Virus record (IMG/VR): IMGVR_UViG_3300002834_000024
Location: 1-64,000 of that record
Reading direction: 5' to 3' (one strand)
DNA from: a virus
Lineage: Duplodnaviria; Heunggongvirae; Uroviricota; Caudoviricetes
DNA: 64,000 bases
Position numbers and translations under genes: made by a program
Part shown: positions 11,764 to 57,981 of the stretch, piece by piece
Layout of the letters: each line of letters starts with the position of its first letter
Position numbering within the stretch: the stretch's first letter is position 1
Notes under the pieces: model-generated
Told to the model about the DNA's origin: nothing
What the model saw: only the letters and a program-made list of their open reading frames with translations
Databases searched by the model: none

Positions 11764-11768
11764 AGGTT

Positions 11769-12917: not shown

Positions 12918-12980
12918 AAAAAATATATTAGATAGTATTTATTTACAAAATAAGATAGTAAAAAATTAAAAAATAATATT

Positions 12981-13463
12981 ATGCCAGTATTACCTAATGG
13001 ACAAACTTGCTTGGAGAATATTGGTCTGCAAATGAGACCTGTTCTTTTGGCTAAAAACCCATACCAAAGTTCATTTTATTCAAAAAATGAATTAACTGAA
13101 TATTCTGTACGTCACCCTAACGCATTATGGGATCCGCTTGATGGACGTGGGTTTGGAACTGGTCATGGTGGTCATACCCACTATACACCAGATTGTAACA
13201 AAGCTGTTATGATTGGGGAACATATGCAATCTCCAATTGATTATAGTAACTTCGATACATACAACGGTGGAGATTGTATTGCAGTAAATGGAAAACCAGG
13301 ATTATCATTTTCTGGTAGAGGAGGGAACACAGGTATTAACAATTATTCTTACTATGGAATACATTATGGCCAGGAATATGTAAATACCAGTCAAAACGTT
13401 GAAGATGGACAATTCGTTGTTGGATATAATAACAAAACAGAAATTATTTGCAATCCCGCATAA
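12981..13463 (+). CDS. hypothetical protein
   Basis: 160-aa ORF preceded by a TATTTAT motif at 12936-12942. Confidence 0.4.
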   Translation: MPVLPNGQTCLENIGLQMRPVLLAKNPYQSSFYSKNELTEYSVRHPNALWDPLDGRGFGTGHGGHTHYTPDCNKAVMIGEHMQSPIDYSNFDTYNGGDCIAVNGKPGLSFSGRGGNTGINNYSYYGIHYGQEYVNTSQNVEDGQFVVGYNNKTEIICNPA

Positions 13464-25058: not shown

Positions 25059-26168
25059 TTATTTTGGCCCAGTATTGGTTGTTGTCCTGTTTGGGGAATA
25101 AGATTGTGTTTGATATGATGGTTGAACATAGTTTTCTTTTAAAACCAATTTATCACCAACATAATTTGCAACAACAAAAAAATCATTGTTAGGGAATAGT
25201 TTAAGATTTTCCTGATATGTTATACCTAATACTTTACAATCATTTCTAGATAAATCTATATAATTTTTATCAATGAATTTTACAACCCAACCATCATATT
25301 CAATATTCCTAATTGTATTTATTTTATAAATGATTTCTATTTCTTTTTTTCTACTTTGTAAATCATTGAAATCATTAATAAAATATTTTAAATCAGATGT
25401 TGTATTATTAGATAATTTAGATAATTCATTATATGAAAAATTAGATTTATGCCAACTCTGAACTTCAGGTACTAATACTACTTTTTGTGTACTATTTGGT
25501 AACTTTTTAATTTTTGCATGAAAAAAATGTGGGGGACTAATTTTTTCAACTTCAAGCATATAAAAGTTATCAAATTTTTCTGTTTCAACTGTTTCAGATG
25601 TAATGTAATCAAATAAATTAGATTTATATTCTGGACTATCAATCATAAATACCATAGAACCAACTTGTAATTCTTGGTTTTCAACTAAAGGGGTTACTTT
25701 TGATAGGAAACAAACTTTAGTCTCCCCAACAGAACGTGCAACACATGATTCAGTAGAATAAAATCTATTGTGTTTCCAACTTGGAGTAGTTAAAGCATAA
25801 GTAATATCATATTTAATAACATTACCGTCCCCATTATCATTATAATTGGATATTAAAGAGTTGAGATTTTTTACTGGTTCTAATTGAGGCTTGTATCTGG
25901 ATGGTAAACGCAAAACATTACCATCCCCATTAAATATTAGGGAAAATGGCTTATTGATTTCAAATATGCAAAGCACATTTTTATCTCCATTTATAATAAT
26001 ACGTGGAGATGCTTTGTCATAGTATACAGCAATTTTATTTCTATCACCATTTACAACTAAATTATCTGCCTTATCACTTGTAAATACTAATTCTTGTTTA
26101 TCACCATTTACCGTTTTACTCATTTGATTACTTTTTATTATTTTCCTCTTGTTGTTGCCACGCTTCAA
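25059..26168 (-). CDS. repeat protein with five NGD-x-N beta-strand-like repeats (possible beta-helix/polymer-forming fold)
   Basis: N-terminal region has five repeats spaced about 15 aa apart: VNGDKQELVF, VNGDRNKIAVYY, INGDKNVLCIF, FNGDGNVLRL, DNGDGNVIKY. An alternative start at an internal Met (26123) would remove the 41-nt overlap with the upstream gene. Confidence 0.4.
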   Translation of the reverse strand: MKRGNNKRKIIKSNQMSKTVNGDKQELVFTSDKADNLVVNGDRNKIAVYYDKASPRIIINGDKNVLCIFEINKPFSLIFNGDGNVLRLPSRYKPQLEPVKNLNSLISNYNDNGDGNVIKYDITYALTTPSWKHNRFYSTESCVARSVGETKVCFLSKVTPLVENQELQVGSMVFMIDSPEYKSNLFDYITSETVETEKFDNFYMLEVEKISPPHFFHAKIKKLPNSTQKVVLVPEVQSWHKSNFSYNELSKLSNNTTSDLKYFINDFNDLQSRKKEIEIIYKINTIRNIEYDGWVVKFIDKNYIDLSRNDCKVLGITYQENLKLFPNNDFFVVANYVGDKLVLKENYVQPSYQTQSYSPNRTTTNTGPK

Positions 26169-27282
26169 GTTCAGAATTTGATAGTGTTGGTATCAAAGAA
26201 ATTTTATTATTTAATGTTAATAAACTTTTTTCAAGATCCCTTCTTTTTGTTATTGCATCATTATTAATTTGTTTTGATTCAATTAACATATGAATAATAT
26301 CATTTGTGCTTGATTCAAGTGCTTCCAATGCAACTACTGAATTTTGATTTTCAGTATTAATTTCTTTCATTTGTATTCTAATATTTTTTGCATTTTTCTT
26401 GATTGTCTCATTAGTTGTTTTACTAAGTGCTTTATGACTTTCTAAAACTTTTTTCTGATTATATAATGCAAGAGAATTTGCGAGAGCATTTTTAAATATA
26501 GGAATAGTTATGGTTGAAATAGTATCCGAATTGTTCATTAATTTTACATTCCCATATTGAATGGCACGTTTTTCTGTTAAACCATTTTGTAATGTATATC
26601 TGGCTACTAACCAATCCGTAACTCTTTTATCAAAAATATTTATATATTCAGTTAAATTGTAAATTTCATGATCGTCATAATTATCTGGGTTTTGGTTCAT
26701 ATCATCTAATTTTGTTTGTAAAATTTCGAGTTGTAATTTTCCCCCAATAATCATAGTTTCCAATTCAGCAATGGAATCCTTATCATTATCATACATTGTT
26801 TGAAGCGTATTGTTATCACCAGCTAATTTTAATTTACCAGCAGCAATTTGGTTGGATATTTCGGTGACACTATTTGAAATAGTATCATATTTTTTAACAA
26901 TTTTATTTAATTTTTTGAAATATTTTCCAATTATTGGCGTTTTTGAAAATTTTACAAGAAATTTATTAGGTAAAGACTTAATTTCATCTGGATCAATTAA
27001 TTCCAATTGCATTTGTAACTCTGTTAATAGATTACCAATTTCACCAGCATTATCTATTTTACAGTGATTAAAAAAATTTGATGAGTTTGTGGAAATTTTT
27101 TGACCAACATCAGTCCCAAATTGAACAATATCCCCAATATTTTCTCCGTCAAATTGTTTTACTTTTTCAAGATATTTTGTTTTTTCTTCGTCCGATAAAA
27201 TAGATAAGTTAATGCTGTTATCTTTTGCAATAATCGCTAACATGTTCCCATCCTTTCTTTGATTTTCACCTGAATTTTTCAT
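26128..27282 (-). CDS. TelA/KlaA-like (toxic-anion-resistance family) protein
   Basis: About 380 aa and largely helical. Architecture and segments such as DIVQFGTDVGQKIS...AGEIGNLLTELQMQLELIDP resemble TelA family proteins. Assignment is from recollection of the family, not a search. Confidence 0.4.
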   Translation of the reverse strand: MKNSGENQRKDGNMLAIIAKDNSINLSILSDEEKTKYLEKVKQFDGENIGDIVQFGTDVGQKISTNSSNFFNHCKIDNAGEIGNLLTELQMQLELIDPDEIKSLPNKFLVKFSKTPIIGKYFKKLNKIVKKYDTISNSVTEISNQIAAGKLKLAGDNNTLQTMYDNDKDSIAELETMIIGGKLQLEILQTKLDDMNQNPDNYDDHEIYNLTEYINIFDKRVTDWLVARYTLQNGLTEKRAIQYGNVKLMNNSDTISTITIPIFKNALANSLALYNQKKVLESHKALSKTTNETIKKNAKNIRIQMKEINTENQNSVVALEALESSTNDIIHMLIESKQINNDAITKRRDLEKSLLTLNNKISLIPTLSNSELEAWQQQEENNKK

Positions 27283-27312: not shown

Positions 27313-27699
27313 TCAATTGCAAAAATAACTACTTTTCAATTGATTTGAAAGATATTTGTTCTCAATATATTTTTTTATTATATCCCCATGACATGATAAA
27401 GGTTTACAAAAACAACCTAAATATACATTTTTACCATTAGTATATAGAGTATAGATTTCGTTAATCTTATTCTGTAACATTTGGTTTATTTCAATTTCCG
27501 AATGGAAATAATTTCGATATTTTTCAATAGAATCCTCTCTGTTTTCAACTATGAATTTGGCTAATGTATTTTTATCCTTTATACTTGTGAATGGATTTGA
27601 TAATACATTACCATATCTATCTCTACCTATATAAAAATAAGGTTCTCCACTTGGTGGAAACTCTTTTTTTATATTTATTACATATATTTCGCCACACAT
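27313..27699 (-). CDS. DUF4326-family protein
   Basis: The block FYIGRDRYGNVLSNPF matches the YIGR...NPF signature of DUF4326. Confidence 0.5.
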   Translation of the reverse strand: MCGEIYVINIKKEFPPSGEPYFYIGRDRYGNVLSNPFTSIKDKNTLAKFIVENREDSIEKYRNYFHSEIEINQMLQNKINEIYTLYTNGKNVYLGCFCKPLSCHGDIIKKYIENKYLSNQLKSSYFCN

Positions 27700-28093: not shown

Positions 28094-30037
28094 TTAATAA
28101 AATCCTTCTACAGAAACAACTCTACCACCATTTAAATGAACATTTATTCTATCTGATTTTAAATCAGCTGTAATGGGACAATTAATATCATCGTATTGAG
28201 TAACCCTAATGTCATTTGTTATTCCAAGATCATTGAATATATCATAACATTCGTCAATTGTCTTATTTAACATAATTTTTTCAAAATTTTTCACTCTTTT
28301 GTCTATTGTTTCAACAACAGCACTTTGTCTTGTTTGTTGTCCTATTGACTTATCTTCTGGTTCCATATTAACTTTTTTTAATGGTAATTTAAAAATTTTT
28401 GTTGGTTCTGATGGTTCATCATATTCAACTTCTTTGTTATATATTTGTTTTAAACAGCCACTTATAACCATTAAATGGGTTACAGTTTCATTTATATCCC
28501 TACTTCCTTGTGGAGGTGGAAAATCTTTTTCACAAATTGTTGAAAATTCATTTTTTGTTCTTGTATATATTACATAAAGTAAATTCTGTTCGGCTTCAAT
28601 TTCCCAATCTTTTTTTGCTAAACCACTTGGGACAAGAGATGGACATAACAGATATACATGTTCGTGTTCTAATCCTTTTGCTTTGTGTGCTGTAATTAAA
28701 CAAATACCATTTTCATCTTGTTTAGCTAAAAATATTTTTTTTATTCTTTGAATTAGTTCAAATGTATTGTTAATATCATTTGATAATGCTTTAATGGTGT
28801 TGATAATTTCCATTTGTTGTATGATACTTCTATCAGATGTTGCATCATATACATCCAATCCCCTTTTAACCATTAGCTTTTCTCTAGCTTCAAGTAAGTT
28901 TTTGTATAATATTGGAATTAACCCATCTTTTTTCATATCAAGTGAAATGTATGGGGTATTAATTCGTTCAATAATGTCAAGTAAATTACTTCCAATATCA
29001 ATTCCTTTAATATAACATTTGATATTACGTTGAATTAATTTCAAATACAACTCAACTAATGGGGCTGTATTTCTACAAATCACCATTGAGTTAGGTTTAA
29101 TGTCTTTTATTTTGGTATCAAATGTAATTTTACCATCTGGAGCATTTTCACGTAATTGAAATTGTGGAACAAATCTTTTTGCTAATGGTAAAACAACCTG
29201 TGGGCATCGGTAATTGATTGATAAATCTAATTTGCTTGTATTTGGTATCTTCAAGATTTTTTCAAATGCCTCATTGTCCGCCCCACTGAAGCACATGATT
29301 GCCTGTTTTCGATCACCAACAGCAACAAATCTACCATCTTTTTTGAGACAACGTTGAAATAATTGTTGCATTGCAATATTTTGGTCTTGACACTCATCTA
29401 AAAGTACCCAATCATATTTTAATGAATTTAAAATGAGATTAAAATAGTTGGGTAAACATATCATATCAGTGAAATCAACAAAATCAAGATTTTCTTTACC
29501 CCATTCAATCAAATGTTTAATTATTTTCACATGATCATTTGTAATCATGTATCCATATTTATCTGCAATTTTAGCAATATCATCAGATGTTTCACATAGA
29601 TAAACTCTACATATATCTATTAATGTAAGTATGGTATCTTTGAACTCATCCCTCTCACATGTTGAAGTAAATTCAATACCTTCACACAATTCACTAAAAT
29701 TTTTCTTGAAATATGTTCGATATTTGTATTCATCAACTTCAAGCCCTGGTATGACTGTTTGATATTTAAAGTGTGTCCGTAACATTAGATAACCAAGTGA
29801 ATGACTTGTCCTAATAGTTACATTACTTTGTTTGATTTTATCTTGTAATTCATTGACTGTTGATTTATTAAATGCAAGAAACATTATTCTCTTTTTTTCT
29901 GGAATAAACTTCAACGCATGTGTTATGGAAAATGATTTGCCGGAACCTGCGATTGCTTCAACAACCGCATTTCCCTTACCATTTGTTATCCAGTCAAACA
30001 ATTTTTCCTGATATGTACTATATTTTATTTCTGACAT
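28094..30037 (-). CDS. UvrD/PcrA-like superfamily 1 DNA helicase
   Basis: Walker A VVEAIAGSGKSFSITHAL, motif Ia TSHS, motif II VLLDECQDQN, and further UvrD-like blocks. 647 aa. Confidence 0.75.
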   Translation of the reverse strand: MSEIKYSTYQEKLFDWITNGKGNAVVEAIAGSGKSFSITHALKFIPEKKRIMFLAFNKSTVNELQDKIKQSNVTIRTSHSLGYLMLRTHFKYQTVIPGLEVDEYKYRTYFKKNFSELCEGIEFTSTCERDEFKDTILTLIDICRVYLCETSDDIAKIADKYGYMITNDHVKIIKHLIEWGKENLDFVDFTDMICLPNYFNLILNSLKYDWVLLDECQDQNIAMQQLFQRCLKKDGRFVAVGDRKQAIMCFSGADNEAFEKILKIPNTSKLDLSINYRCPQVVLPLAKRFVPQFQLRENAPDGKITFDTKIKDIKPNSMVICRNTAPLVELYLKLIQRNIKCYIKGIDIGSNLLDIIERINTPYISLDMKKDGLIPILYKNLLEAREKLMVKRGLDVYDATSDRSIIQQMEIINTIKALSNDINNTFELIQRIKKIFLAKQDENGICLITAHKAKGLEHEHVYLLCPSLVPSGLAKKDWEIEAEQNLLYVIYTRTKNEFSTICEKDFPPPQGSRDINETVTHLMVISGCLKQIYNKEVEYDEPSEPTKIFKLPLKKVNMEPEDKSIGQQTRQSAVVETIDKRVKNFEKIMLNKTIDECYDIFNDLGITNDIRVTQYDDINCPITADLKSDRINVHLNGGRVVSVEGFY

Positions 30038-30103: not shown

Positions 30104-30601
30104 TATTGTTTTTACCTTTGAATTAACTTCTTTAAGTTTATCTAATATGAGATATGGAAAAACATATTTAGTTTTTAACACATAAGGGTAGTAGTCTACT
30201 TCTATTTTATCTTCATTTTTTCCACTTAATCGAAGCCAAGTCAAACTTAATTTTTCAAACAACTGGTTTAATCGAACTGGCGTGCTTGCATTTTTATCGG
30301 TTTTATTTCGATAATTCCACCAGGCATCCCAATATTCCCTTTCACAATTTATTGCTGTATTTGGAACTATATCAATTACAAATTGTTTTCCAAATAATGT
30401 AATTGCTAATCGTGGAGGAAAATCATACCGTAAAAAATCATCTGGCCATTTAATACTATATCCTAAAGGACAATAATGAATACCCCATTTTATGTTATAT
30501 GGAGTTCCATAAATTGCATCGCCAAAATAAAATTGTAATTTTAATCCTTTGAATGGTGATTTTAATACAGTTAAATATTCTAATGATTCAAGTATTTTCA
30601 T
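30098..30601 (-). CDS. hypothetical protein, translationally coupled to the FKBP gene
   Basis: 167-aa ORF whose start overlaps the FKBP gene stop by 4 nt (ATGA). Confidence 0.45.
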   Translation of the reverse strand: MKILESLEYLTVLKSPFKGLKLQFYFGDAIYGTPYNIKWGIHYCPLGYSIKWPDDFLRYDFPPRLAITLFGKQFVIDIVPNTAINCEREYWDAWWNYRNKTDKNASTPVRLNQLFEKLSLTWLRLSGKNEDKIEVDYYPYVLKTKYVFPYLILDKLKEVNSKVKTII

Positions 30602-30936
30602 TTAATTTCTAATAATTCTACATCAAATGTTAAATCTTCATTTGGTCCAATTACATTACCAGCACCTCTTGTACCATAAGCCATAGCAGATGGTATGTTG
30701 AGTGTTCTTTTTCCCCCAACTTTCATTCCAACAATGCCAACATCCCAACCTCGTATTACTCTTTGAACTCCAATCATAGTTTCAAAAGGTTCGTTTCTTT
30801 TGTATGATGAATCAAATTCCTTACCATTGGATAATAATTTTCCTGAATAGTGCATTACGCATACATTACCAGGTTTCACTGTTTCACCTTCACCAACAAC
30901 AGTGTCAATAATTTGTAAATTGTTTAATTTTCCCAT
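30598..30936 (-). CDS. FKBP-type peptidyl-prolyl cis-trans isomerase
   Basis: VKPGNVCVMHYSGKLLSNGKEFDSS...MIGVQRVIRGWDVGIVGMKVGGKRTLNIPSAMAYG...LTFDVELLEI is the canonical FKBP domain. Confidence 0.8.
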   Translation of the reverse strand: MGKLNNLQIIDTVVGEGETVKPGNVCVMHYSGKLLSNGKEFDSSYKRNEPFETMIGVQRVIRGWDVGIVGMKVGGKRTLNIPSAMAYGTRGAGNVIGPNEDLTFDVELLEIK

Positions 30937-32124: not shown

Positions 32125-32439
32125 TCAGGACAAATTTTCTTGATTAAATTCTTCATCTACATAATCCAACGTAAATTCGACTGTTGGATTTTTATTTTCA
32201 ACAGCAACAACCCAATATATTTCATCTTCCTCATTTATATCTTTGATTGGTTCTGTTGCTCTCTCTGTACACATATAAATAGTCCAGTTTGGTAATACCA
32301 TAGGTGCGCCCCATTGTTCATTTATATGTGGAGGGTCATCACTAAAAATGACTTCCATGTTATTATCTGGGGTTTCAAACATTTGTTTGACTTGTTCTTT
32401 TGTTAATGGTTGCCCATTATATTGAAATTCATCTTTCAT
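32125..32439 (-). CDS. hypothetical protein
   Basis: 104-aa ORF downstream of the RNR gene. Confidence 0.4.
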   Translation of the reverse strand: MKDEFQYNGQPLTKEQVKQMFETPDNNMEVIFSDDPPHINEQWGAPMVLPNWTIYMCTERATEPIKDINEEDEIYWVVAVENKNPTVEFTLDYVDEEFNQENLS

Positions 32440-32454: not shown

Positions 32455-35091
32455 TTAGTTACAAGCTGAATATCCACATGTGCAGTGTTTACAACCATTT
32501 TCATTAATTAGTTTTAACCCACAATCTGGACATAATTCTTCTTTTAATTCGTTTTCTTTAACATATTTCATTAATATTCTTGCAGCTACCGATGAAAAAC
32601 TCGAAATGTCACCATCAAAACGTTTTATGGTATCTACAATGTATTGTTTTGGAGTACCTTGTCGCATCATCAATGATATATTAATTGATAATTGTTTTTC
32701 AGATATTGAATTGTGTTCCCCAAGATTAGGTATTTTTATAAATTCAGATTCAAAAGAATAAAGTCCGCTTTTAATTTTTATTCTTTTTCCACTATGATCC
32801 CCAATTTTTCTAAAAGGTACTTTTACATCTATATTATCTAATGTAGGTTTAAAACAAAACATTTCAACAGGAAAATCACATTTAGGGTGAATACCAACAA
32901 TGATTACATAAGTTTCGCCTTTATATTTTATTTTATAAAAATCCCCTTTAAGTTCTTTTGGAAGTTTTGGTACATGTCTTTCATAAAATTCTTTACAATC
33001 ATCATCCTTTTTATCAGTAATGAGTACCCCGCCTTTTGATCCATCTCTGTAGCAGGTTATACCTTTACAACCATTTCGATATGCACTATTATAAACATTT
33101 GCCATATCATCAACTGTTGCATTATTAGGCAAATTAACTGTACTACTTATTGAAGAACATGTGTATTTATTGATTAAACTTTGTGTTTTTGTTCTTACAT
33201 CAATGGGTAAATCATTTGCAATTTGTTGATAATAAGGTGAACATTCATATATTCGTTGCCAATCTTCTTCTTTACAATTTTCAACAAGTTTTTCATAAGT
33301 AAAATTACCCAATTCTAACCATTCACGTAATTTGTGATGAACAACATAATTTTCTTTGAATTTTTGACCATCAACATCAACAACATCATAAGGTTCATTA
33401 TCTTTAAAAACTTTAACACGTCTTTTGTAGAATGGGGCAAATAAAGGTTCTATTCCAGATGTTAATTGTGTTATTACACCAAGCGTTCCTGTGGGTGCAA
33501 TACAAGACCATGTAACGTTTCTTCTTCCATAAGCAATCATTCTCATAACTTGTGGCTGATAGTTAGTCACAAGGAAATTATACCAACTATTAGCAGGGTT
33601 TTTAAATTCACCAATATATTCTTTATTGGTATCATACAATCCAAAACTCCCCCGAATAATTGCCAAATCTATTGTTGCATCTAATTCAGCCTGTAATTTA
33701 ACTTTCATTAATTTTTCTGTAATTTCAAGATCGCCATAGGGTAATCCTAATGCAGCATACATATCACCCAATCCAAGAAATCCACAGCCAAGTTTTCTTC
33801 CTTGAATTAATTTTTGTTTAACTGTTAACCATGTTAAATATTCGTCATCAATATCTTTATCATTATTGATACAATCCAGTTTATATTGTTTGTTTGTGAT
33901 ATATGGGTTAACATCTGGTTCTATTTTTTGTAATATTTTATCTAATTGCTCTAACTCTAAATCAATATAATCATCACCAATACAAATGGCTTCATAAAAC
34001 ACTTGATATGCTTTTTCAAAATCAATTTCAGATACATATTTTTCTTCAAAATTATTATATTTGAATGGGTTTTTAACAAGATTATATAAATTAGATGCAA
34101 CTAATATACATGATTGTAATTCAGCTAATGGTAATTCGCCACAAAGGTTTGGGGATGATGGTTTTAGGTATGGATAAACTGTTGAACCATCATGTTCAAG
34201 CGAATAATCCCAAAATAAACAGCCAGGGTCCCCACAATCATGATTTGATATTAAAAATTCATTCCAAATATGTTTTGCTTTTACTTTCTTTACATATTTT
34301 TTTTCTGAATTGTTAATTTGTGTTAAAACATTATATTCAAGTTTTTCGGTATCTACATCTTTTACATCTAAATCAATAGGAAATCTTAAAATAAAATCTT
34401 TATTATCAGAAACAGCATCAAAAAATTCTTTTGAAAATTTTAAACTTATATTAGTATTTGTTAATGCAGTTTTATCTCGTTTTGCTTTTATAAATTGTAA
34501 TACATCAGGATGTTCAACATATAAAGATAAGAGTGTACCCGATTGTCTTCCAAGTTGCCCAATCTCTTGACTAATTGAATTATAAATTCTCATCCAAGAT
34601 AAAATTCCACCACTCTCTCTTGAAGCATTATGAACTGCTGCACCAGCTGGCCTTAAATAAGATACATCAACAGACGTACCACCACGTCTTTTAGCGATGT
34701 TTGCAATTTCTTTACCAGAATCAATGATTGAATTTATAGTATCTTTTGGGTCTGTATTCTTATAACAATTGGAATATGAACCGTTTTTATCAGTTCCAAT
34801 ACCTTCTAATCCAGATCCCCCAGAAATAATGTATTTAAAATTTTCTAAAAACTGATATAGATGGTTTTCCCAGTTACCAGCTCTATATCTATCTTTTCCA
34901 TATTCACTTAATTTTTCATAATCTTCTGGTTTAACAGAATATTTTTTTTCAATTCTCGCAAATTCATTTGTTAATCTTTTACAAACATCTTGTGGGGTTT
35001 CTTCTTTTTCGTAGGAATATTTTTTTAAAAACACACCTGCTGCCATGTCATCACCGTTAAAGAAGTCTAAAATCTTATTATACATATACAT
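32455..35091 (-). CDS. nrdJ: ribonucleotide reductase catalytic subunit, class II-like (B12-dependent type) with C-terminal zinc ribbon
   Basis: Active-site blocks SPNLCGELPL (N-x-C-x-E) and SCIAPTGTLG, plus loop RPAGAAVHNASRESGG. The C-terminus CPDCGLKLINENGCKHCTCGYSAC is a CxxC-x10-CxxC finger of the kind described for class II RNRs. No small (R2) subunit gene is visible in the window. The class call is inference from these motifs. Confidence 0.6.
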   Translation of the reverse strand: MYMYNKILDFFNGDDMAAGVFLKKYSYEKEETPQDVCKRLTNEFARIEKKYSVKPEDYEKLSEYGKDRYRAGNWENHLYQFLENFKYIISGGSGLEGIGTDKNGSYSNCYKNTDPKDTINSIIDSGKEIANIAKRRGGTSVDVSYLRPAGAAVHNASRESGGILSWMRIYNSISQEIGQLGRQSGTLLSLYVEHPDVLQFIKAKRDKTALTNTNISLKFSKEFFDAVSDNKDFILRFPIDLDVKDVDTEKLEYNVLTQINNSEKKYVKKVKAKHIWNEFLISNHDCGDPGCLFWDYSLEHDGSTVYPYLKPSSPNLCGELPLAELQSCILVASNLYNLVKNPFKYNNFEEKYVSEIDFEKAYQVFYEAICIGDDYIDLELEQLDKILQKIEPDVNPYITNKQYKLDCINNDKDIDDEYLTWLTVKQKLIQGRKLGCGFLGLGDMYAALGLPYGDLEITEKLMKVKLQAELDATIDLAIIRGSFGLYDTNKEYIGEFKNPANSWYNFLVTNYQPQVMRMIAYGRRNVTWSCIAPTGTLGVITQLTSGIEPLFAPFYKRRVKVFKDNEPYDVVDVDGQKFKENYVVHHKLREWLELGNFTYEKLVENCKEEDWQRIYECSPYYQQIANDLPIDVRTKTQSLINKYTCSSISSTVNLPNNATVDDMANVYNSAYRNGCKGITCYRDGSKGGVLITDKKDDDCKEFYERHVPKLPKELKGDFYKIKYKGETYVIIVGIHPKCDFPVEMFCFKPTLDNIDVKVPFRKIGDHSGKRIKIKSGLYSFESEFIKIPNLGEHNSISEKQLSINISLMMRQGTPKQYIVDTIKRFDGDISSFSSVAARILMKYVKENELKEELCPDCGLKLINENGCKHCTCGYSACN

Positions 35092-35178
35092 TTAAAATTA
35101 ATTATTCAATTATATTAGACATAACATTCCTATCTTATTCAATTATAAGAAAAAAATATAAATAATACAAATCTTGTA

Positions 35179-35589
35179 TTAAATAGATAAATTTTTAGAT
35201 AGGTTTCCAGTAGATAAGTCAGCATAACCATTCCACCAATCAATGATATTTTGTTTTAAAAACAATGTTCTTTTATCACTCTTGTTAATTTTGGATTTGA
35301 ACTCATCTTCCAAGCGATAAAATAGATCCATTGGGGTAATATTTGTAACAACTTCTTCTTTGTTATTCTTTCCCCTTGTCTTTACACCAACAACCTTTTT
35401 ATTGGTAAACTTTCCATCTGGTGATATTTCGGTTTGTACACCTACTTCGTAACCATTATTCAAAAATCTTTGAATGTCTTTTACTAAACTTATCTGTGTA
35501 TCTTCTTTGATAATCATTGGATTACCAAAGTTATATTCTGTAAGTTCAATAAACTTATTTAGTGTTTCTTTTAAAATATTTTCTTTCAT
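35179..35589 (-). CDS. hypothetical protein
   Basis: 136-aa ORF. Confidence 0.4.
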   Translation of the reverse strand: MKENILKETLNKFIELTEYNFGNPMIIKEDTQISLVKDIQRFLNNGYEVGVQTEISPDGKFTNKKVVGVKTRGKNNKEEVVTNITPMDLFYRLEDEFKSKINKSDKRTLFLKQNIIDWWNGYADLSTGNLSKNLSI

Positions 35590-35640
35590 AGTGTATATAA
35601 ATAATCGTTATTTTGGATTTTTTACATACATATTAGTTCC

Positions 35641-36231
35641 TCAAACAGATTCTTGGTCTAAACTATTATAATATTCAAGTTCCAACTTATGGGCTTTATC
35701 AAATACTTCTTGACCATACCATTCGATTAACTCGTCATCAGTAACATTGCCATTAATCATTTTAGAATAACAATCCATAACTTTATCTTTAAAAGCCATT
35801 TGTTCAATCTTTTTAATTTCATCCAATTGCCAGTATTTATTTCTAAATTTTTCTAATTCATCTAAATTAGTGTCTAACATTTTATCAAATGGATAAATTT
35901 TAATAAATTTATTAAAGGCTTTTCCTGATGATTTATGATCTTCTCTATTGAGATGTTCAATAAATGCCACATAATCATGTATAGGAACATTTTTATATAG
36001 GTATGTTGCACCTCTATTAAAAACAATTTTAACATCAACAGCCTTACCCATTAGTCCTTCAACTCCACTTTCATTCAAAGTAACAGACCTACCAGTCAAA
36101 TCAACTTCGGAATGATGAACGTTTGTGCTGTGAAACCAGCAATACTCTTTATTATCAACCTGTGTTTTATAAATTAACATAACTACTATTGTATTTTTGG
36201 TAAAAATGCTTATATTGTTTTTTATAAACAA
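35641..36231 (-). CDS. KTSC-domain-like protein
   Basis: The segment RSVTL..SGVEGLMGKAVDVKIVFNRGATYLYKNVPIHDYVAFIEHLNREDHKSSGKAFNKFIK resembles the KTSC fold pattern (L.V.F..G..Y.Y..VP...Y..F.....SKG..FN). Confidence 0.35.
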   Translation of the reverse strand: MFIKNNISIFTKNTIVVMLIYKTQVDNKEYCWFHSTNVHHSEVDLTGRSVTLNESGVEGLMGKAVDVKIVFNRGATYLYKNVPIHDYVAFIEHLNREDHKSSGKAFNKFIKIYPFDKMLDTNLDELEKFRNKYWQLDEIKKIEQMAFKDKVMDCYSKMINGNVTDDELIEWYGQEVFDKAHKLELEYYNSLDQESV

Positions 36232-36240
36232 ATATTTTTA

Positions 36241-38754
36241 ATGAAGAAGCAAGAACTGTTGTCCTTTTCAAAAGAGTTAAATAATATCGTAAAACTTGTT
36301 GATGATGAAATTATTAAACAATTTCCAACATATAATATAAGTATAGAATACATCATTTATGGTATTCTATGTTCTAATAAATCAATTGGTTATCAAACAT
36401 TGGAAGATTTAACATTGAGTAGTAACATTGAGATGATGCAAACGATGTTATCCTCTCTACTTAATACAAAATGTTTAGCCAATAATTGTCATATTATAAG
36501 TCCAAGAAAAAAGGTTGTATTCGATGATGAAACTTTAACCACATTTAACAAAGCTGATGAAGAAAGAAAATTATTAAAAGATGAGGAACTTACAAGTGAA
36601 CATGTTTTATTAAATATTTTGAAATCAGAACATGACATTAAAAAATCTTTTAATAACATTGGAATAACATATGATATTTTCAAAGGTAGAGTTATTACCA
36701 AACGAAATGAAGAAACTAATCCTGTTGAAGAAAAACCAATAGAACAACAACCAAAACCAGTTTTAATTGCACAACCAGGATGTCCTATGGTAATGGTTCC
36801 ACAATTACCTAAAAGAACCAAAAATGGGAATATTGAAAAACACACCATAAACTTAAATCTATTATACCAACAAAACAAATTAGATAAAGTTATTGGCAGG
36901 GAAAAAGAAGTTAATACAGTTATGAAGACATTATTAAAACGAAATAAAAATAATGTGATTTTAACTGGTAATAGTGGGTGTGGTATTACATCCATAGTTA
37001 ATTTATTGGTTGAAAAATTAGTCATTGGAAATTGTCCCACACCTTTAGTAAACAAAGAAGTTTTAAAACTTAATATTAATTCAATGATTGAGAGTAGTCA
37101 ATATAAGGGGATATTTGAACAACGGACAATTGATTTAATGAAAGAGATAAAAGAATATAAAGGTAAATACATTCTATTATTAGATGACATTCATGTTGAT
37201 TTGATGAAAGATAACAACAATGATGTATTAACATTTCTAAATACATTATTGACTGATGATGATATAAAAGTAATCGTAACCATACCTTTACAGTCATATA
37301 AAAAAAATATTGAAAAATATGGATTTATTGAAAAAAGATTAAATAAGATTATTGTTGATAACATGAATATGGATGATACTATCAAAGTATTGCAAACAAA
37401 TAAACATTATTATGAAGATTTTCATAATGTCTTTTTTTCAGATGATTTAATCGAACAAATTGTAAAATTATGTGAAAGATATATTTCAGATAAAGCATTG
37501 CCATCATCAGCAATTGAAATAATTGACATACTTGGTAGTAATTCTCGTTTAAAAAATGAAAGTGTAAATGAAATTATTCAAGTAAAAAATGAGATTAGTG
37601 TTATGCAAAACCGAATGGATGCTGCAATCCAAGCAGAACAATATGAGGTAGCTGATACATGTAAATTAAATCTAAATAAACTTAATACAAAATTAAAAAA
37701 TTTAACGGAAAGTAATATTAATAAAAAAGAAATTAGTGAAATAACTGAAAATGATTTACTTTCTATTGTTAGTGAATTATCTAAAATACCATTAACAACA
37801 CTTTCAACCAATGAGTTAAAACATATTGGAAAATTATCTGACATTATTAAAGAAAATGTTATTGGACAAGATGAAGCAGTAGATAAGGTTGTGAAAACTA
37901 TTCAGAAAAATAGACTTAATTTGAAAAGTAATGTTAAAAAACCATCAGTGTTCTTTTTTCTTGGCAATTCTGGGGTGGGTAAAACACTATTGGCAAAACA
38001 ATTAAGTAAAACTGTGTATGGTGATGAAAAAAATATGCTAAGAATAGATTGTTCGGAATTATCTGAAAGTCATAGTATTAGTAAATTACTTGGAAGTCCA
38101 GCGGGGTATATCAGTCATGGAAATTCAACTATATTAGATAAAGTAAAACATAACCCATATACAGTTGTACTTATTGATGAGATTGAAAAGGCACATGATA
38201 ACATTTACAATTTATTTCTTCAATTGTTTGATGATGGTAGAATAACAGATTCAACTGGTGTTACTATTGATTTTAGTAATACGATAATAATAATGACTTC
38301 TAATGTTGGAACAAAAATTTCAAATGATTATAAACCTGTTGGATTTGGTACTATTGATGATGATACATTATTAAAAAATCGGGAGGATATTATTAAAAAA
38401 CAGATGAATAAAAAGTTTACACCTGAATTTTTAAATAGAATTAACTCTATTATCTATTTCAAACCATTAACAGAAAAAAATATTAAAGATATTATTGAAT
38501 TAAATTTGAATACATTTAATTCCATTTTAAATGATAAAAATGAAAAATACAGTATAAAATGGACAGAAGAAGTTATTGAATTTATTTTTTCTAAAATAAG
38601 CGAAGATGATAAAAAATTAGGGGCAAGACCAGTTCTTCGGTTAATCGAAACTCACATAGAAGAAAAAATCACCGAATTATTAATTGAAAATTCATATTCT
38701 GATAACTATATATTTTCCATAAGTATTATTGATGATGAAACAAATATTATTTGA
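36241..38754 (+). CDS. ClpC/ClpA-like AAA+ unfoldase with degenerate first ATPase domain
   Basis: Two Clp_N-like repeats at the N-terminus. D1 Walker A is GNSGCGITS (Lys replaced by Ile) and Walker B is ILLLDDIH (DE to DD). UVR-like motif QAEQYEVADTCKLNLNKL. D2 is canonical: FLGNSGVGKTLLAKQL, VVLIDEIEKAH, and sensor region GRITDSTGVTIDFSNTIIIMTSNVG. Confidence 0.8.
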   Translation: MKKQELLSFSKELNNIVKLVDDEIIKQFPTYNISIEYIIYGILCSNKSIGYQTLEDLTLSSNIEMMQTMLSSLLNTKCLANNCHIISPRKKVVFDDETLTTFNKADEERKLLKDEELTSEHVLLNILKSEHDIKKSFNNIGITYDIFKGRVITKRNEETNPVEEKPIEQQPKPVLIAQPGCPMVMVPQLPKRTKNGNIEKHTINLNLLYQQNKLDKVIGREKEVNTVMKTLLKRNKNNVILTGNSGCGITSIVNLLVEKLVIGNCPTPLVNKEVLKLNINSMIESSQYKGIFEQRTIDLMKEIKEYKGKYILLLDDIHVDLMKDNNNDVLTFLNTLLTDDDIKVIVTIPLQSYKKNIEKYGFIEKRLNKIIVDNMNMDDTIKVLQTNKHYYEDFHNVFFSDDLIEQIVKLCERYISDKALPSSAIEIIDILGSNSRLKNESVNEIIQVKNEISVMQNRMDAAIQAEQYEVADTCKLNLNKLNTKLKNLTESNINKKEISEITENDLLSIVSELSKIPLTTLSTNELKHIGKLSDIIKENVIGQDEAVDKVVKTIQKNRLNLKSNVKKPSVFFFLGNSGVGKTLLAKQLSKTVYGDEKNMLRIDCSELSESHSISKLLGSPAGYISHGNSTILDKVKHNPYTVVLIDEIEKAHDNIYNLFLQLFDDGRITDSTGVTIDFSNTIIIMTSNVGTKISNDYKPVGFGTIDDDTLLKNREDIIKKQMNKKFTPEFLNRINSIIYFKPLTEKNIKDIIELNLNTFNSILNDKNEKYSIKWTEEVIEFIFSKISEDDKKLGARPVLRLIETHIEEKITELLIENSYSDNYIFSISIIDDETNII

Positions 38755-52990: not shown

Positions 52991-55900
52991 TTGGATTTAC
53001 AAAATATCATAGAACAAACCATTAAACAGGCTTTAAGAAGTGCTGAAAAGACTGTTGATACCAACCCATCTGAAAAAGAGATAAAAGCTGGAAATTACAA
53101 GAAAGGACATATCAATATTCTTGGATTTGATATTACCATTGAAAATCCAAAAGGTTCTTATCGAAGTGGAAAAGATCGTGATGGTAAAGAATGGAAAACT
53201 AAAATGTATAACACTTATGGTTATTTTAAAAACAGTGTTGGATATGATGGGGACCATGTTGATGTATTTTTAGGAAACAATTTAGAATCAAACAAAATAT
53301 TTGGAATAGACCAATTTATAAAAGGGAAGTTTGATGAAACTAAATTTATGATGGGATTTGATAGTGAAGAAGAAGCCAAAAAAGCATATTTATCCAATTA
53401 TGATAAAGATTGGAAAGGTTTCAAGTATATACGTGAAACTGATGTTGAAACATTTAAAAAATGGTTATATAGAGGTAAAAAACAAAGATTACCATTCCAT
53501 GATTATGTTACATTATCTGAAAGTATATTGAATGAGTTGTCAATAGGTAGGGTATTATTATCCCATTTCACAGATGCTTTAAATAACCCAAAACTGTTTA
53601 ATGAACCAAATTGGATACAAAAACATAAAGAAATTCAAGATAATCATGGTGATAATTTTAATATTACTAAAATTAATAGTGAGATATTAAATAAATTAAT
53701 ACCACAATATACATCTAAAAATCCAGAATTAATGAGTAATATGGGTATTGAAAATGCTATTAACTTATTAACTAAAAATAAATATCGTAGTGATCAAGCA
53801 GTAAATTTAACAAAAGAATTATTATCCTTACATAATGAACTGAAAGAAAATCCAGAATTAATTAATAATGGGAATTTTATGGATAGGTACAATCATTTAA
53901 AAAAATTATATGGTAATAGAGTTAACCTTGATAAACCATATAAAAAAAGTGATCGTAGAGACACAAATGGTAATTTAATAAATAATAAAGAAGATATACC
54001 TTTACAAAAAAAACCTATTGAAACAAAATCTAATATAAATAAAAAATCTTTGAAACAAGAGCCTCTTGTAATTGGTTGGGAAATGATTGAATCGAAAGAA
54101 ACAAATATTATAAGGATTAATAATCGTGGTTCATGGTTAGAAGATTTTTGTGAAAAAATTAAAAAATATACAGATAAATTTGAAATACTATATGACTGTG
54201 CTTATGATAAACATAATAAGACTGGACAAAAATATGGTATTGAAAGTAAAGAATATCCTGGTATTGGGCAATTTGATTATGTAATGATTTATTCTGATGT
54301 TTCGGTTGAAGATAAAGAAAAATATAAATATTTAAGAAATGATGGCGAATATGAAATCACATGTCGAGGAATAAAAACCAAAGAGATACTCAAGGATATA
54401 TTAAAAAGATTAGGTCAAAATGGGAATAGTGGTCATACATTTGCTTTCAAAATTAAATCTTTAAATGGAAACAAAGAAGATACATTACAATATGATGGCG
54501 ATGGACATGATTTTGTTGAATTATTAGATGATAAAAAGAATGAAACAATTAATGAATCCACAGAAAATATTGAACAAGAAGAAAGCAAAAAAATGATTAA
54601 AAATTATTTTGGTATTCAACTGATGGATGATTGGGACAAACTACGACTTGGCGGTGGTGGATCTGGGGTTGCATATTTAACATTGGATGGTTATGTATTA
54701 AAGCTAACAACATCACCAAATGAATTTCGGACAGCACAACGAATGAAAGGAAAAACATTTAAACATTTAGTTAATGTATATAATGTATTGGATTTTGAAC
54801 AAGAAAATATTCCGCCTTATGGTTATTGGAAAAAAGGTAAATGGGTGAGATGTTTTTATGGTATTCTTGAGGAATATGTTGATTCTAATTTACAGTATAA
54901 CCAATTTATGCACAAATATATTATGGATGTATTATTCAATGATAATATCATGAATGGAATAGTTGGTACAAAAGCATCTCATAATAACCGTTATATTATG
55001 TTAGAGTATCTTATATCAGAAGAAAATGTTAATACTATTATTTCACGAATTGAAAGTTATGATAAATTTAATGAAGATCAAAAAAATGTTTATATAGATG
55101 CAACACAACAGTTACATGAAGCCGTTCTGGAAATGGAAAGTGTTCCAGGTCTTGAATTAGATAGTTTTTTGGGGGGTTCAAATTTTGGCTTTGATGATAA
55201 TGGTGTTATAAAAGCATTTGATTTGGAGGGTATTATGACTGAAAACACATTATATGAACGTGATATGCGTTTCTATAATGACAACAATGAAGAAATGGAT
55301 ATTACAGATTATCTGGATACTTCATCTGAAATGAAAATAGATACTGCAATCAATATTATCAATACCAAATTAAGACAACCACAAGCAAGACATCAAGTAT
55401 TAAAATATATTTTGAAAAATATTAATAAATCGAACATGTCTGGACAAATGAAAATGGATTTAAGAGATCAAGTCATGGAAGATTTATCTAACAAAGTTAC
55501 AAAACTTATTATACCAACCATGTTTAAAGATGGTGAACAACAAAGAGTTGATGTTGATACACATTTAGAAGACTTAAATGAGGAAAATAAAAGATTATTA
55601 TCGCACAAATTTCAAATACCAACAGAATTATTTCAAACACTATCTAATAGATTTAACAAAATAAAGGGTAATCAAAATTTTACAAGTAGAGATGGGTATA
55701 AAAGACTTCAAAATCTTGTTAATTCAAATGGTGAAATAGGTTACTTATGGATGAATAGATTAAAAAATTTCTGGAAATATTTCGATGGAGATGCTGATAA
55801 TGATATTGAAGCGTGGTTAAATGGGGGGGGCGAAATGCGAGATTGGGTTAATAAAGCATTGGATGAAGCAGAAAAATCACTTGAAATGTCTAAAATGACT

Positions 55901-56137
55901 TCAAAAGATGCTGGTATTAAAAATGCCTTTATCCAACATCACTATAAGAACAATAATCAAATAAATGTCAATTCTGATGCTGTATCATTTGGAAAAGTAA
56001 AAAATAATATGGGGGAAAGTTTGGTGTATTGGCATGTTGATGGTGATGCTTCCCCTGACAGTGATAGTTATGAAATTGGTCCAGAAGAACCAATTACAAT
56101 TAAAAATGTTGTTGAACAAATAATTAAAAATATATAA
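52991..56137 (+). CDS. large multidomain (polyvalent-like) protein with a kinase-like domain
   Basis: 1048 aa starting at TTG (TAA in frame 2 codons upstream; no ATG until about residue 70). The N-terminal block YGYFKNSVGYDGDHVDVFLG...KGKFDETKFMMGFDSEEEAKKAY resembles inorganic pyrophosphatase signature regions (YGYI...DGDPVDVLV; KGKWVKVEGWENAEAAK). The middle domain is shared with 38785-40572. Kinase-like region LGGGGSGVAYLTLDGYVLKLTT...LDSFLGGSNFGFDDNGVIKAFDLEG. Followed by a cell-wall amidase gene. Confidence 0.55.
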   Translation: MDLQNIIEQTIKQALRSAEKTVDTNPSEKEIKAGNYKKGHINILGFDITIENPKGSYRSGKDRDGKEWKTKMYNTYGYFKNSVGYDGDHVDVFLGNNLESNKIFGIDQFIKGKFDETKFMMGFDSEEEAKKAYLSNYDKDWKGFKYIRETDVETFKKWLYRGKKQRLPFHDYVTLSESILNELSIGRVLLSHFTDALNNPKLFNEPNWIQKHKEIQDNHGDNFNITKINSEILNKLIPQYTSKNPELMSNMGIENAINLLTKNKYRSDQAVNLTKELLSLHNELKENPELINNGNFMDRYNHLKKLYGNRVNLDKPYKKSDRRDTNGNLINNKEDIPLQKKPIETKSNINKKSLKQEPLVIGWEMIESKETNIIRINNRGSWLEDFCEKIKKYTDKFEILYDCAYDKHNKTGQKYGIESKEYPGIGQFDYVMIYSDVSVEDKEKYKYLRNDGEYEITCRGIKTKEILKDILKRLGQNGNSGHTFAFKIKSLNGNKEDTLQYDGDGHDFVELLDDKKNETINESTENIEQEESKKMIKNYFGIQLMDDWDKLRLGGGGSGVAYLTLDGYVLKLTTSPNEFRTAQRMKGKTFKHLVNVYNVLDFEQENIPPYGYWKKGKWVRCFYGILEEYVDSNLQYNQFMHKYIMDVLFNDNIMNGIVGTKASHNNRYIMLEYLISEENVNTIISRIESYDKFNEDQKNVYIDATQQLHEAVLEMESVPGLELDSFLGGSNFGFDDNGVIKAFDLEGIMTENTLYERDMRFYNDNNEEMDITDYLDTSSEMKIDTAINIINTKLRQPQARHQVLKYILKNINKSNMSGQMKMDLRDQVMEDLSNKVTKLIIPTMFKDGEQQRVDVDTHLEDLNEENKRLLSHKFQIPTELFQTLSNRFNKIKGNQNFTSRDGYKRLQNLVNSNGEIGYLWMNRLKNFWKYFDGDADNDIEAWLNGGGEMRDWVNKALDEAEKSLEMSKMTSKDAGIKNAFIQHHYKNNNQINVNSDAVSFGKVKNNMGESLVYWHVDGDASPDSDSYEIGPEEPITIKNVVEQIIKNI

Positions 56138-56860: not shown

Positions 56861-57136
56861 ATGTATAAAATAGATTTAAAATTATTTGAATTAGAACTTT
56901 GGTTTAGACGTTTATTTGGACAAAAATATCTTGTTAATCTAAATCCAAAGAGCAAAGAAATACATCGAATTTATGGGAAAAATCGTTGTAAATTTCTCCC
57001 ATCTATTACACATAAAAAATATGTGGGAATAAACGGAATGAAAGAAATATTAGATGACAAACCAGGTGGGTATAATGGATGTTACTTGTGTTTAAGAGAA
57101 TTTGATATGGATAAAAGAACAATGGACAAAAAATGA
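56861..57136 (+). CDS. hypothetical small protein
   Basis: 91-aa ORF overlapping the next gene by 4 nt. Confidence 0.35.
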   Translation: MYKIDLKLFELELWFRRLFGQKYLVNLNPKSKEIHRIYGKNRCKFLPSITHKKYVGINGMKEILDDKPGGYNGCYLCLREFDMDKRTMDKK

Positions 57137-57900
57137 TAAATGATTTACAATTGGAAATAAAACCAGAGCAAATCAATCTTAAATCATTTGACCAAAAAGA
57201 ACAATTAAACCCAAAATTTTTCCCAAATGGGTATAAATTGAATCCAAAGGTTAGATTGAGATTGCTTGATATTGCTGATGATTTTGTGGAATATCTTAAT
57301 ATTCCATTCGCAAAACCATTAGATATTGTTTTGGTTGGTTCCATTGTTTCTTATCAATGGTCAAGATATTCAGATATTGACTTACATATTATATATAATT
57401 TTTATGATATTTCCGATAAAACTGACTTTGTTAGAGAATATGTTGATGCAAAGAAAAATTTGTGGAATGAAGAACGCAAAATAAAAATTTATGGTTTTGA
57501 TGTTGAATTATATGTAGAAGATGAAAATCATCCATCAACAAGTAATGGTAGATACAGTATTGAAAGAAATGATTGGGTACATGAACCATCAAGAGAACCA
57601 TCTTTTCAATATGAAAAAAGTTATATAAAAGAAAAGTCTGCAAAACTTATGGATTTAATAGATAGGTATGAAGAAAATTTTGAATGTAACAAAGATGATG
57701 AAGTTTATTTAATGGAATTAACAAATAAAGTAAATAAACTTTGGAGTAAAATAAAAGCAATTCGTAAAGATAGTATTGAAAAGTATGGCGAAATGTCTAC
57801 TGGTAATATAATTTTCAAAGTTTTAAGAAGAAGTAAATATTTACAAAAATTATATGAATTAAAGACAAAATTATATACATTCAATAAAAGCATACGATAA
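57133..57900 (+). CDS. minimal Pol-beta-type nucleotidyltransferase
   Basis: IVLVGSIVSYQWSRYSDIDLHIIY carries the GS...D.D nucleotidyltransferase signature. 255 aa. Confidence 0.5.
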   Translation: MINDLQLEIKPEQINLKSFDQKEQLNPKFFPNGYKLNPKVRLRLLDIADDFVEYLNIPFAKPLDIVLVGSIVSYQWSRYSDIDLHIIYNFYDISDKTDFVREYVDAKKNLWNEERKIKIYGFDVELYVEDENHPSTSNGRYSIERNDWVHEPSREPSFQYEKSYIKEKSAKLMDLIDRYEENFECNKDDEVYLMELTNKVNKLWSKIKAIRKDSIEKYGEMSTGNIIFKVLRRSKYLQKLYELKTKLYTFNKSIR

Positions 57901-57981
57901 TTTGTTGTTTTTAATTAATACACTATTTATTATAAAATAATTATTCTTTAAAAGAAGTAAATAAAAAAATTAACACATATT

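Follow-up and report, generated by a model that had tools for sequence, protein, structure and literature searches.

A ClpC-type unfoldase of a large tailed phage with a degenerate but conserved D1 ATPase module and a predicted ClpP-docking loop

The 64,000-nt stretch of DNA analysed here, called the window throughout, comprises positions 1 to 64,000 of the IMG/VR virus record IMGVR_UViG_3300002834_000024 (Duplodnaviria; Heunggongvirae; Uroviricota; Caudoviricetes), and it encodes on its plus strand an 837-residue protein resembling the bacterial double-ring unfoldase ClpC. The first of the two AAA+ modules of this protein, D1, appears to have lost the residues needed for ATP hydrolysis, whereas the second, D2, appears intact. 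The gene and the domains of its product are as follows (pLDDT, predicted local distance difference test).

36241..38754, plus strand: clpC-like gene, 837 amino acids from an ATG start (open reading frame (ORF) list), in the order N-domain, D1, M-domain, D2, D2-small
36241..36720, plus strand: N-terminal domain, residues 1-160, Clp_N fold of 4+4 helices (AlphaFold and Foldseek)
36721..36852, plus strand: disordered, fast-evolving linker, residues 161-204, pLDDT below 50
36853..37365, plus strand: D1 large AAA+ subdomain, residues 205-375, putative pseudo-ATPase with a confident AAA+ fold (ClpC alignment)
37558..37722, plus strand: M-domain, residues 440-494, one two-helix coiled coil as long as that of ClpC (full-length model: helices at 440-464 and 468-494)
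37831..38460, plus strand: D2 large AAA+ subdomain, residues 531-740, fully canonical (Pfam AAA_2 and the motifs given below)
38461..38730, plus strand: D2 small subdomain, residues 741-830, with sensor-2 GAR (Pfam ClpB_D2-small, E 9e-13)

The closest solved relative of the protein is Bacillus subtilis ClpC/MecB (E 4e-127, about 30% identity), and phage residues 204-820 are collinear with ClpC residues 169-787, with an M-domain of equal length. Pfam places AAA_lid_9 at residues 377-473, AAA_2 at 569-736 (D2, E 7e-50) and ClpB_D2-small at 743-822, and the protein belongs to phrog_4871, annotated as 'ATP-dependent protease' (E 3e-157; residues 92-836 against profile positions 82-754 of 764). It falls below the NCBIfam equivalog cut-offs of ClpB (473.6 against 1232), ClpA (436.4 against 993), TssH/ClpV (410 against 885), ClpK (393 against 1900) and ClpG (369 against 1900). 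A full-length predicted model (pLDDT 80.8) keeps the normal AAA+ fold in D1, and its top Foldseek matches are ClpC structures. Alignment, fold and domain order thus bear out a sequence-only reading made earlier from the letters of this DNA, which had described a full-length ClpC-like double-ring protein. The two Clp_N repeats that it had named are likewise found in the fold: Pfam gives only a single repeat, which at 19.9 bits stays below the cut-off of 20.7, but an AlphaFold model of residues 1-200, with pLDDT above 90 across 11-160, has the 4+4 helices and finds ClpC and ClpC1 N-domains as its best Foldseek matches (probability 1.0, target TM-score 0.74-0.84, 12-19% identity). The UVR-like motif of the same reading holds loosely, in that there is a two-helix M-domain of ClpC length in which EQYEVAD aligns with QEFEKAA of ClpC, but the Pfam UVR model finds no match. 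This domain is a short single coiled coil within the D1 small subdomain in ClpC, a long four-helix structure in ClpB, and absent in ClpA. The phospho-arginine Glu residues of ClpC are E32 and E106 (PMC12583610); their equivalents in the phage protein, E36 and E120, are not conserved across the clade described below, and we therefore draw no inference on phospho-arginine binding by the N-domain.

The catalytic motifs were read from the alignment with B. subtilis ClpC and from an alignment of 21 sequences.

36967..36993, plus strand: degenerate D1 Walker A, GNSGCGITS, residues 243-251, Lys replaced by Ile249 (ClpC alignment; canonical GxxGxGKT)
37096..37110, plus strand: D1 pore-1 loop, SQYKG, Tyr288 kept (ClpC alignment)
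37171..37194, plus strand: degenerate D1 Walker B, ILLLDDIH, residues 311-318, Glu replaced by Asp316 (ClpC alignment; canonical hhhhDE)
37273..37290, plus strand: D1 sensor-1 region, IVTIPL (canonical IGATTL), GATT replaced by VTIP, that is, TT by IP
37327..37344, plus strand: D1 Arg-finger region, IEKRLN (canonical LERRFQ), the RR pair changed to KR by replacement of the first Arg with Lys
37963..37989, plus strand: D2 Walker A, GNSGVGKTL, Lys invariant in 163 of 163 full-length sequences scored
38167..38196, plus strand: D2 Walker B, VLIDEIEKAH, Glu invariant in the same 163 of 163

Alignment to ClpC puts Ile249 at the Lys of GKT and Asp316 at the catalytic Glu, and every catalytic element is found in D2, including the sensor-1 Asn, the Arg finger and sensor-2 GAR. 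The earlier reading had reported the same two D1 substitutions (in GNSGCGITS and LLLDDIH) and an intact D2 (GNSGVGKT; LIDEIEKAH), and was right on all three; the sensor-1 change from GATT to VTIP and the change from RR to KR are losses beyond its list. The codon of Ile249 is ATT, and any Lys codon is two substitutions away. In the alignment, the glycines G243, G246 and G248 and the threonine T250 of the D1 P-loop show little or no variation. All sequence criteria point to a catalytically dead D1 and an intact D2, from which a motor driven by D2 alone, as that reading had proposed, follows as the natural expectation, and at this level we regard a dead D1 with a driving D2 as well supported.

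The protein has two AAA+ modules with a D2-small subdomain, a Clp_N fold, a short M-domain, an xGF loop and a seemingly competent D2, all of which belong to a ClpC-type class-I Hsp100, and it lacks the competent D1 of that type, with GIT, DD, IP and KR at the aligned positions. As judged from alignment and models it would thus be of ClpC type in every structural respect bar a functional D1. It does not have the make-up of a ClpB/Hsp104 disaggregase, as the M-domain is short and a VGF loop is present; the ClpB representative in our set (P0075) has no such loop.

Relatives were gathered by a word-indexed search, which returned graded relatives at 79, 54, about 41 and about 34% identity, and then by an exhaustive phmmer search against 1.84 billion cluster representatives, where the best 150 of 11,479 matches with E below 1e-30 were examined. 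The state of D1 was scored in 165 sequences. It is canonical, with both Lys and Glu, in 70 and missing in two, which are fragments. In 81 the Walker A Lys is kept and the Walker B Glu is lost (Asp 54, Asn 25, Ala 1, Gly 1), and in 12 both are lost (at Lys: Ile 7, Thr 2, Leu 1, Arg 2). All 93 sequences with a degenerate D1 have an N-domain and keep the Walker A Lys and Walker B Glu of D2. Retention of Lys with loss of Glu is the classic state that binds but does not hydrolyse nucleotide. A neighbour-joining tree was built from 580 columns with the motif columns masked and was midpoint-rooted, without support values. In it, nine sequences with Ile, Leu or Thr for Lys, which come from separate contigs and reach down to about 40% identity, form one clade, and this clade is nested within a clade of 94 tips, 92 of which have lost the Walker B Glu; 68 of the 70 canonical-D1 proteins lie outside the larger clade. 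In the simplest history that the tree suggests, D1 lost its residues in two steps: the catalytic Glu disappeared before the nucleotide-binding Lys, which was lost in one sub-clade. In that sub-clade, to which the window gene belongs, Lys would have gone together with sensor-1 and one Arg. P0011 (Thr) and P0209 and P0023 (Arg) may represent independent losses. By its sequence distribution, a D1 without Lys is a trait of a lineage and not a one-off.

The genomic contexts fetched for degenerate-D1 proteins are all phage-like, five from metagenomic contigs (L001-L003, L084 and L085) and four from IMG/VR (L004-L007), the latter ranging from a 6.5-kb fragment (L006) to contigs of 186-217 kb. IMG/VR holds at least 429 ClpC-like stretches; among 80 copies examined, D1 is canonical in 76 and without the Glu alone in four, the Lys is present throughout, and many copies have no N-domain. 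Among GenBank phages, megablast with the gene gave no match, and tblastn gave matches of at most 36% identity, many of them in short records without annotation, possibly of host DNA. A search of 185,579 species-representative genomes of bacteria and archaea gave no close relative of the protein.

Some of the relatives show peculiarities of their own. In a 367-kb relative (L001) the ClpC-like gene is split into a 745-residue ORF (10001-12238) and an overlapping 85-residue ORF (12235-12492) carrying the D2-small end; the split may be genuine or may stem from a frameshift or an assembly error. The same contig encodes, about 8 kb away at 733-1890 on the minus strand, a 385-residue single-ring protein with AAA_2 and ClpB_D2-small (phrog_4339), that is, a second Clp-like ATPase of ClpX/HslU size. 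Some homologues exceed the others in length by several hundred residues, and in the alignment large insertions open directly after the Walker A Lys position in both D1 and D2. Two long ones, P0107 and P0118, list the LAGLIDADG-type family PF14528, and P0139, P0169, P0221, P0229 and P0252 (1010-1212 residues) are possibly similar. We suggest that these P-loop insertions are probably inteins.

The degenerate D1 is maintained by selection. Within the Lys-less clade the mean identity is 55% for the D1 large subdomain and 57% for D2, and across the deepest split of the clade it is 50% for D1 and 48% for D2. Between the window gene and its 79% relative the ratio of nonsynonymous to synonymous substitution rates (dN/dS) is 0.087 in D1, 0.090 in D2, 0.65 in the linker and 0.16 overall, with dS about 1. 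The aromatic residue of the D1 pore-1 loop is retained in all 12 Lys-less sequences (Tyr in nine, Phe in three); in the relatives that retain Lys and lack Glu this residue is often Leu or Met. D1 is thus a maintained pseudo-ATPase under purifying selection equal to that on D2, and this selection, together with the kept pore aromatic, indicates that the role of D1 depends on its fold and its pore loop.

One further element of D2, absent from the sequence-only reading, which had given only the lack of a ClpP gene, bears on what the protein may do.

38338..38346, plus strand: VGF tripeptide, residues 700-702, predicted tip of a ClpP-docking loop, aligned with VGF of B. subtilis ClpC

In the full-length model the tripeptide sits on an exposed loop between the D2 helices 691-696 and 707-725. 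Nearly all phage copies, and 86 of the 93 proteins with a degenerate D1, retain its GF, which the ClpB representative lacks. A tripeptide loop of this kind docks ClpA and ClpC on ClpP and is not present in ClpB/Hsp104 (PMC5540906), and in Staphylococcus aureus ClpC mutation of the tripeptide abolishes ClpP binding (10.1101/2025.06.06.658286). The statement that no ClpP gene lies nearby can be extended to the whole 64-kb window, where neither tblastn with E. coli and B. subtilis ClpP nor a profile of three ClpP sequences found anything above noise, with query sequences that did detect ClpP in another locus (L021). That locus is the only one of 83 related loci with ClpP within 10 kb of clpC. As the xGF loop is conserved and ClpP is present within 10 kb in just one of the 83 loci, docking on a ClpP of the host is the most economical explanation, and on these sequence grounds we suggest coupling to host ClpP as the most likely mode of action.

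Two other candidate partners were considered and rejected. An ORF at 32125-32439 gave a marginal phmmer match to ClpS (9 bits), and Pfam finds nothing there. An M42/M20-like peptidase, as a proteolytic partner, is absent from the window and from L001-L007. As a separate observation, a peptidase of this kind (phrog_4191) is found near clpC in 42 canonical-D1 loci whose ClpC-like protein has no N-domain (e.g., L014, L016, L022 and L061), and in L009 it lies immediately downstream of clpC (11975-13024, plus strand), which hints at a pairing of unfoldase and peptidase that does not involve ClpP.

The tailed-phage origin of the window is confirmed by its gene content, which includes a tape-measure protein, SF1/SF2 (superfamily 1 and 2) helicases, an RNA ligase, a large subunit of a class-I/II-like ribonucleotide reductase (RNR) and virion proteins. 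The identical 837-residue protein is recorded on a 347,076-bp contig, which makes its carrier a jumbo phage, and in three source collections. The clpC gene opens a long plus-strand block with virion proteins; the minus-strand block that diverges from it holds genes of nucleotide metabolism and replication. Around it lie the following features.

36181..36240, no strand: divergent intergenic region between the KTSC gene and clpC, 60 bp, AT-rich (from the sequence)
35641..36231, minus strand: KTSC-domain gene, divergent from clpC, likely starting at ATG 36180 and not at TTG 36231; candidate partner
35179..35589, minus strand: ORF of 136 amino acids with no recognisable family, homologues near clpC in relatives; candidate partner

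A promoter and terminator scan found 56 promoter-like sites around the divergent junction, where 51 were expected, in AT-rich DNA. The KTSC family (PF13619) scores 20.5 bits in the window copy, below the Pfam cut-off of 25, but five of five homologues of this neighbour match it in Pfam (best E 7.5e-7), and a profile of the neighbour's family matches the KTSC protein of PDB entry 7x8c (E 3.4e-4). The KTSC gene that had been noted divergently upstream of clpC is therefore real. To our knowledge, the KTSC domain has no known function. By profile search, a KTSC ORF lies upstream of clpC on the opposite strand in 68 of the 83 related loci, at a median distance of about 0.7 kb; six of the 15 loci in which none was detected have less than 1.7 kb of upstream sequence. 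The loci with KTSC include distant canonical-D1 forms without an N-domain. The coordinates are 8271-8654 in L003, 8286-8744 in L004, 9121-10002 in L005, 4254-4976 in L007, 9206-9985 in L084 and 6875-7459 in L085, and in the last two the placement is again divergent and upstream. A wider module, with a T4-type portal, the large terminase and other families, is shared by 49-66 loci. Homologues of two genes of this module lie about 20 kb off in the window (57133-59301), and the KTSC gene is still beside clpC. We conclude that the KTSC gene is a conserved neighbour of clpC and not an incidental one.

The family of the 136-residue protein is found within about 3 kb of clpC in L003 (6179-6583, minus strand), L004 (14495-14857, plus), L005 (15083-16117, minus), L007 (7834-8241, plus), L084 (12679-13089, plus) and L085 (5476-5883, minus), so that position and strand vary, and it has no informative match in Pfam, PHROG, PDB or PADLOC. 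The KTSC and 136-residue proteins are candidate partners or adaptors of the unfoldase, a role that we infer from their placement.

Other genes of the window are described here for completeness. About 5 kb from clpC, at 30598-30936 on the minus strand, lies a gene for an FKBP-type peptidyl-prolyl isomerase (Pfam FKBP_C, E 3e-32). This second gene for proteostasis near clpC is conserved in the two closest relatives (L003 1235-1573; L085 1195-1533). The SF1 helicase at 28094-30037 on the minus strand has its closest counterparts, at 35% identity, in the Bacteroides phages SJC03 and the DAC series; Chryseobacterium and other phages come next at lower identity, and the matches include many Flavobacterium phage records. 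These sequence affinities give a weak hint of a host from the Bacteroidota. The replication-side block also encodes a TelA-like protein of the toxic anion resistance family (26128-27282, minus strand, E 1e-61) and a DUF4326/DUF488-N3 protein (27313-27699, minus strand), both unusual as phage auxiliary genes. On the plus strand, at 52991-56137, is a gene for a 1048-residue protein whose N-terminal 190 residues match several PHROGs (E down to 3e-46), namely domains of giant virion-associated, DarB-like and endolysin-type proteins, and whose homologues adjoin clpC in L005 and L007. The cumulative GC skew has its minimum (-1.13) exactly at the junction, at about 34000-36240, between the minus-strand RNR and KTSC genes and the plus-strand clpC, and AT and GC skew both switch sign there. 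The junction might mark a strand switch or a change of transcription polarity or, possibly, a landmark of replication.

Taken together, we propose that the protein is a jumbo-phage ClpC-type class-I Hsp100 with a pseudo-ATPase D1 that is driven by D2 and docks on host ClpP, a model that we favor as a whole with moderate confidence. In this model the protein would be hexameric, with ATP hydrolysis and pulling of the substrate left to D2 alone. D1 would serve as a static collar that scaffolds the N- and M-domains and, since its pore-loop Tyr is kept, also grips the substrate. The VGF loops would dock the hexamer onto ClpP, and onto that of the host rather than one of the phage, because no phage ClpP is encoded nearby. 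The highly diverged Clp_N domain would select the proteins that are then degraded, and the KTSC protein, the 136-residue protein or both may assist as adaptors. The hexamer, the D2-only motor, the coupling to host ClpP, the adaptor role of the neighbours and the identity of the substrates are all proposals made from sequence. For the D2-only motor there is a precedent in ClpAP with a hydrolytically inactive D1, where unfolding and translocation continue and are driven mainly by D2 (10.1101/585554).

Several points weigh against this model. Every functional step in it is read from sequence. Assembly of the ClpA hexamer requires nucleotide (PMC5540906), which leaves assembly with a Lys-less D1 unexplained, and D1-inactive ClpAP stalls and back-slips (10.1101/585554); the natural lineage has presumably compensated for the stalling. 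The retention of G243, G246, G248 and T250 means that D1 may still bind nucleotide or another ligand. The search for ClpP covered 64 kb of a genome of about 347 kb, so that a phage ClpP may lie in the remaining 283 kb or so. As to the neighbours, the adjacency of KTSC and clpC is embedded in broader synteny, with other upstream families in 49-66 loci, so that descent alone may explain it, and neither the KTSC gene nor the 136-residue family was found beside clpC in L001 or L002. The roles put forward in the sequence-only reading, remodelling of host proteostasis or dismantling of a host defence protein, are speculation.

The first alternative to weigh is a refinement of our model, in which D1 is dead for hydrolysis but still binds ATP or a phosphate ligand as a structural or regulatory element of assembly. 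The near-invariance of the P-loop glycines and T250 and the strong purifying selection on D1 are consistent with it, as is the sister clade, which retains Lys and loses only Glu and would thereby bind without hydrolysing; moreover, Pex6 D1 binds ATP through a non-archetypal Walker A without hydrolysis (PMC10518020). On the other hand, a hydrophobic Ile or Leu now stands where Lys would contact the beta and gamma phosphates, and D1 has also lost sensor-1 and one Arg of the RR pair; that four elements degenerated together argues for loss of the site, and we therefore treat bound ligand as a tentative possibility, though one to be kept in mind. Somewhat more doubtful is a role independent of ClpP, in which the protein would serve virion morphogenesis or phage protein complexes as a chaperone, a disassembly factor or a translocase. 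Such roles in translocation or assembly have been proposed for the ClpA- and ClpX-like proteins of jumbo phages (Iyer et al., PMC7824862), and the position of clpC at the head of a plus-strand block with virion proteins, its place beside the T4-type portal and large terminase in canonical-D1 relatives and the lack of ClpP nearby would fit. However, 86 of the 93 proteins with a degenerate D1 retain the xGF loop, as do most canonical phage copies, the ClpP-independent ClpB is without it, and the M-domain is of the ClpC and not the ClpB type. A more elaborate version of our own model is unlikely to be correct in full: in a large lineage of big phages, KTSC and ClpC, in some members with the 136-residue protein, would form a self-contained substrate-selection module that hijacks host ClpP, with D1 as a gate controlled by an adaptor or ligand. 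If it were true, specific host proteins such as defence or regulatory factors would be destroyed, and the first function of KTSC would be that of a Clp adaptor.

The combination of a dead D1 and a kept ClpP loop could also describe a decoy or inhibitor, a weakened look-alike of ClpC that occupies host ClpP or titrates host adaptors and so shields phage proteins, and phages do manipulate host ClpCP, as with SPO1 Gp53 (PMC6873191). We find this very unlikely, as the D2 catalytic residues and both pore loops, needless in a passive cap, are under strong purifying selection, and an N-domain only 12-19% identical to those of ClpC makes titration of host adaptors implausible. That the protein belongs to a defence system carried by the phage, of the kind of Dodola (DolB) or PDC-M37 with their ClpB-like ATPases, is more improbable still: PADLOC does match PDC-M37B (3e-35) and DolB (2e-30), but only within D2 (residues about 442-692), which reflects the shared AAA_2, none of five neighbouring proteins matches PADLOC, so that there is no partner gene, and the full-length architecture is that of ClpC. 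Finally, a sequencing or assembly error or a decaying pseudogene has nothing but the unusual motifs in its favor. The ORF is intact, the identical protein occurs in the three source collections, ATT is two steps from Lys, and dN/dS is low, overall and in D1; a sequencing error whose correction would restore the Walker A Lys is refuted by the nine sequences on separate contigs that share the D1 state. We give the artefact practically no credence.

ClpC in phages is not itself new, as phrog_4871, the records of Clp genes in jumbo phages and the 429 or more stretches in IMG/VR make clear. In a literature search outside whose coverage most subscription journals lay, we found no description of a naturally D1-inactive Clp/Hsp100 protein or of this lineage; the naturally D1-dead ClpC lineage, and especially its Lys-less sub-clade, is new. 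For AAA+ mechanism it offers a natural experiment in which D1 seems to have been switched off in two steps, hydrolysis and then Lys, with D1, pore loop, D2 and ClpP loop still under selection, and it thus bears on the purpose of the non-dominant ring in unfoldases of the ClpA and ClpC type and on the need for D1 nucleotide in assembly. It also suggests that many large phages may carry their own ClpC-type substrate selector and borrow only ClpP from the host. The recurrent pairing of KTSC and ClpC is a testable lead on the KTSC domain, and if the substrates are host defence or regulatory proteins, the system would be a new route of host takeover.

Among known systems, bacterial ClpC (MecA/ClpC/ClpP of B. 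subtilis and S. aureus; ClpC1 of Mycobacterium tuberculosis) has the same domain order and the same xGF loop; the phage protein differs in being phage-encoded, about 30% identical overall and 12-19% in the N-domain, and without the D1 Lys, Glu, sensor-1 and one Arg. The state predicted for it is that of the engineered D1-inactive ClpA in ClpAP, in which D2 is the sole active motor and still delivers to ClpP (Kotamarthi, Sauer, Baker, 10.1101/585554), but that ClpA is a poorly performing laboratory mutant, whereas the phage protein is natural, long-maintained and of the ClpC type with an M-domain. The type-II AAA+ pair Pex1/Pex6 likewise has one dead but conserved ring as a scaffold and another that threads (PMC10518020); it is, however, a classic AAA, eukaryotic heterohexamer with no ClpP partner, and its D1 still binds ATP. 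Among phage Clp genes, ClpA, ClpX, ClpP and ClpS have been noted in jumbo phages (Iyer et al. 2021, PMC7824862), and the protein described here shares phrog_4871 with other ClpC-like copies, from most of which it is set apart by its D1, canonical in 76 of the 80 IMG/VR copies examined. With SPO1 Gp53, an adaptor-like protein that reprograms host ClpCP (PMC6873191), it would have in common that a phage redirects Clp-dependent proteolysis. SPO1 contributes no more than an adaptor for the ClpC of its host, whereas here the whole unfoldase would be supplied and only ClpP borrowed.

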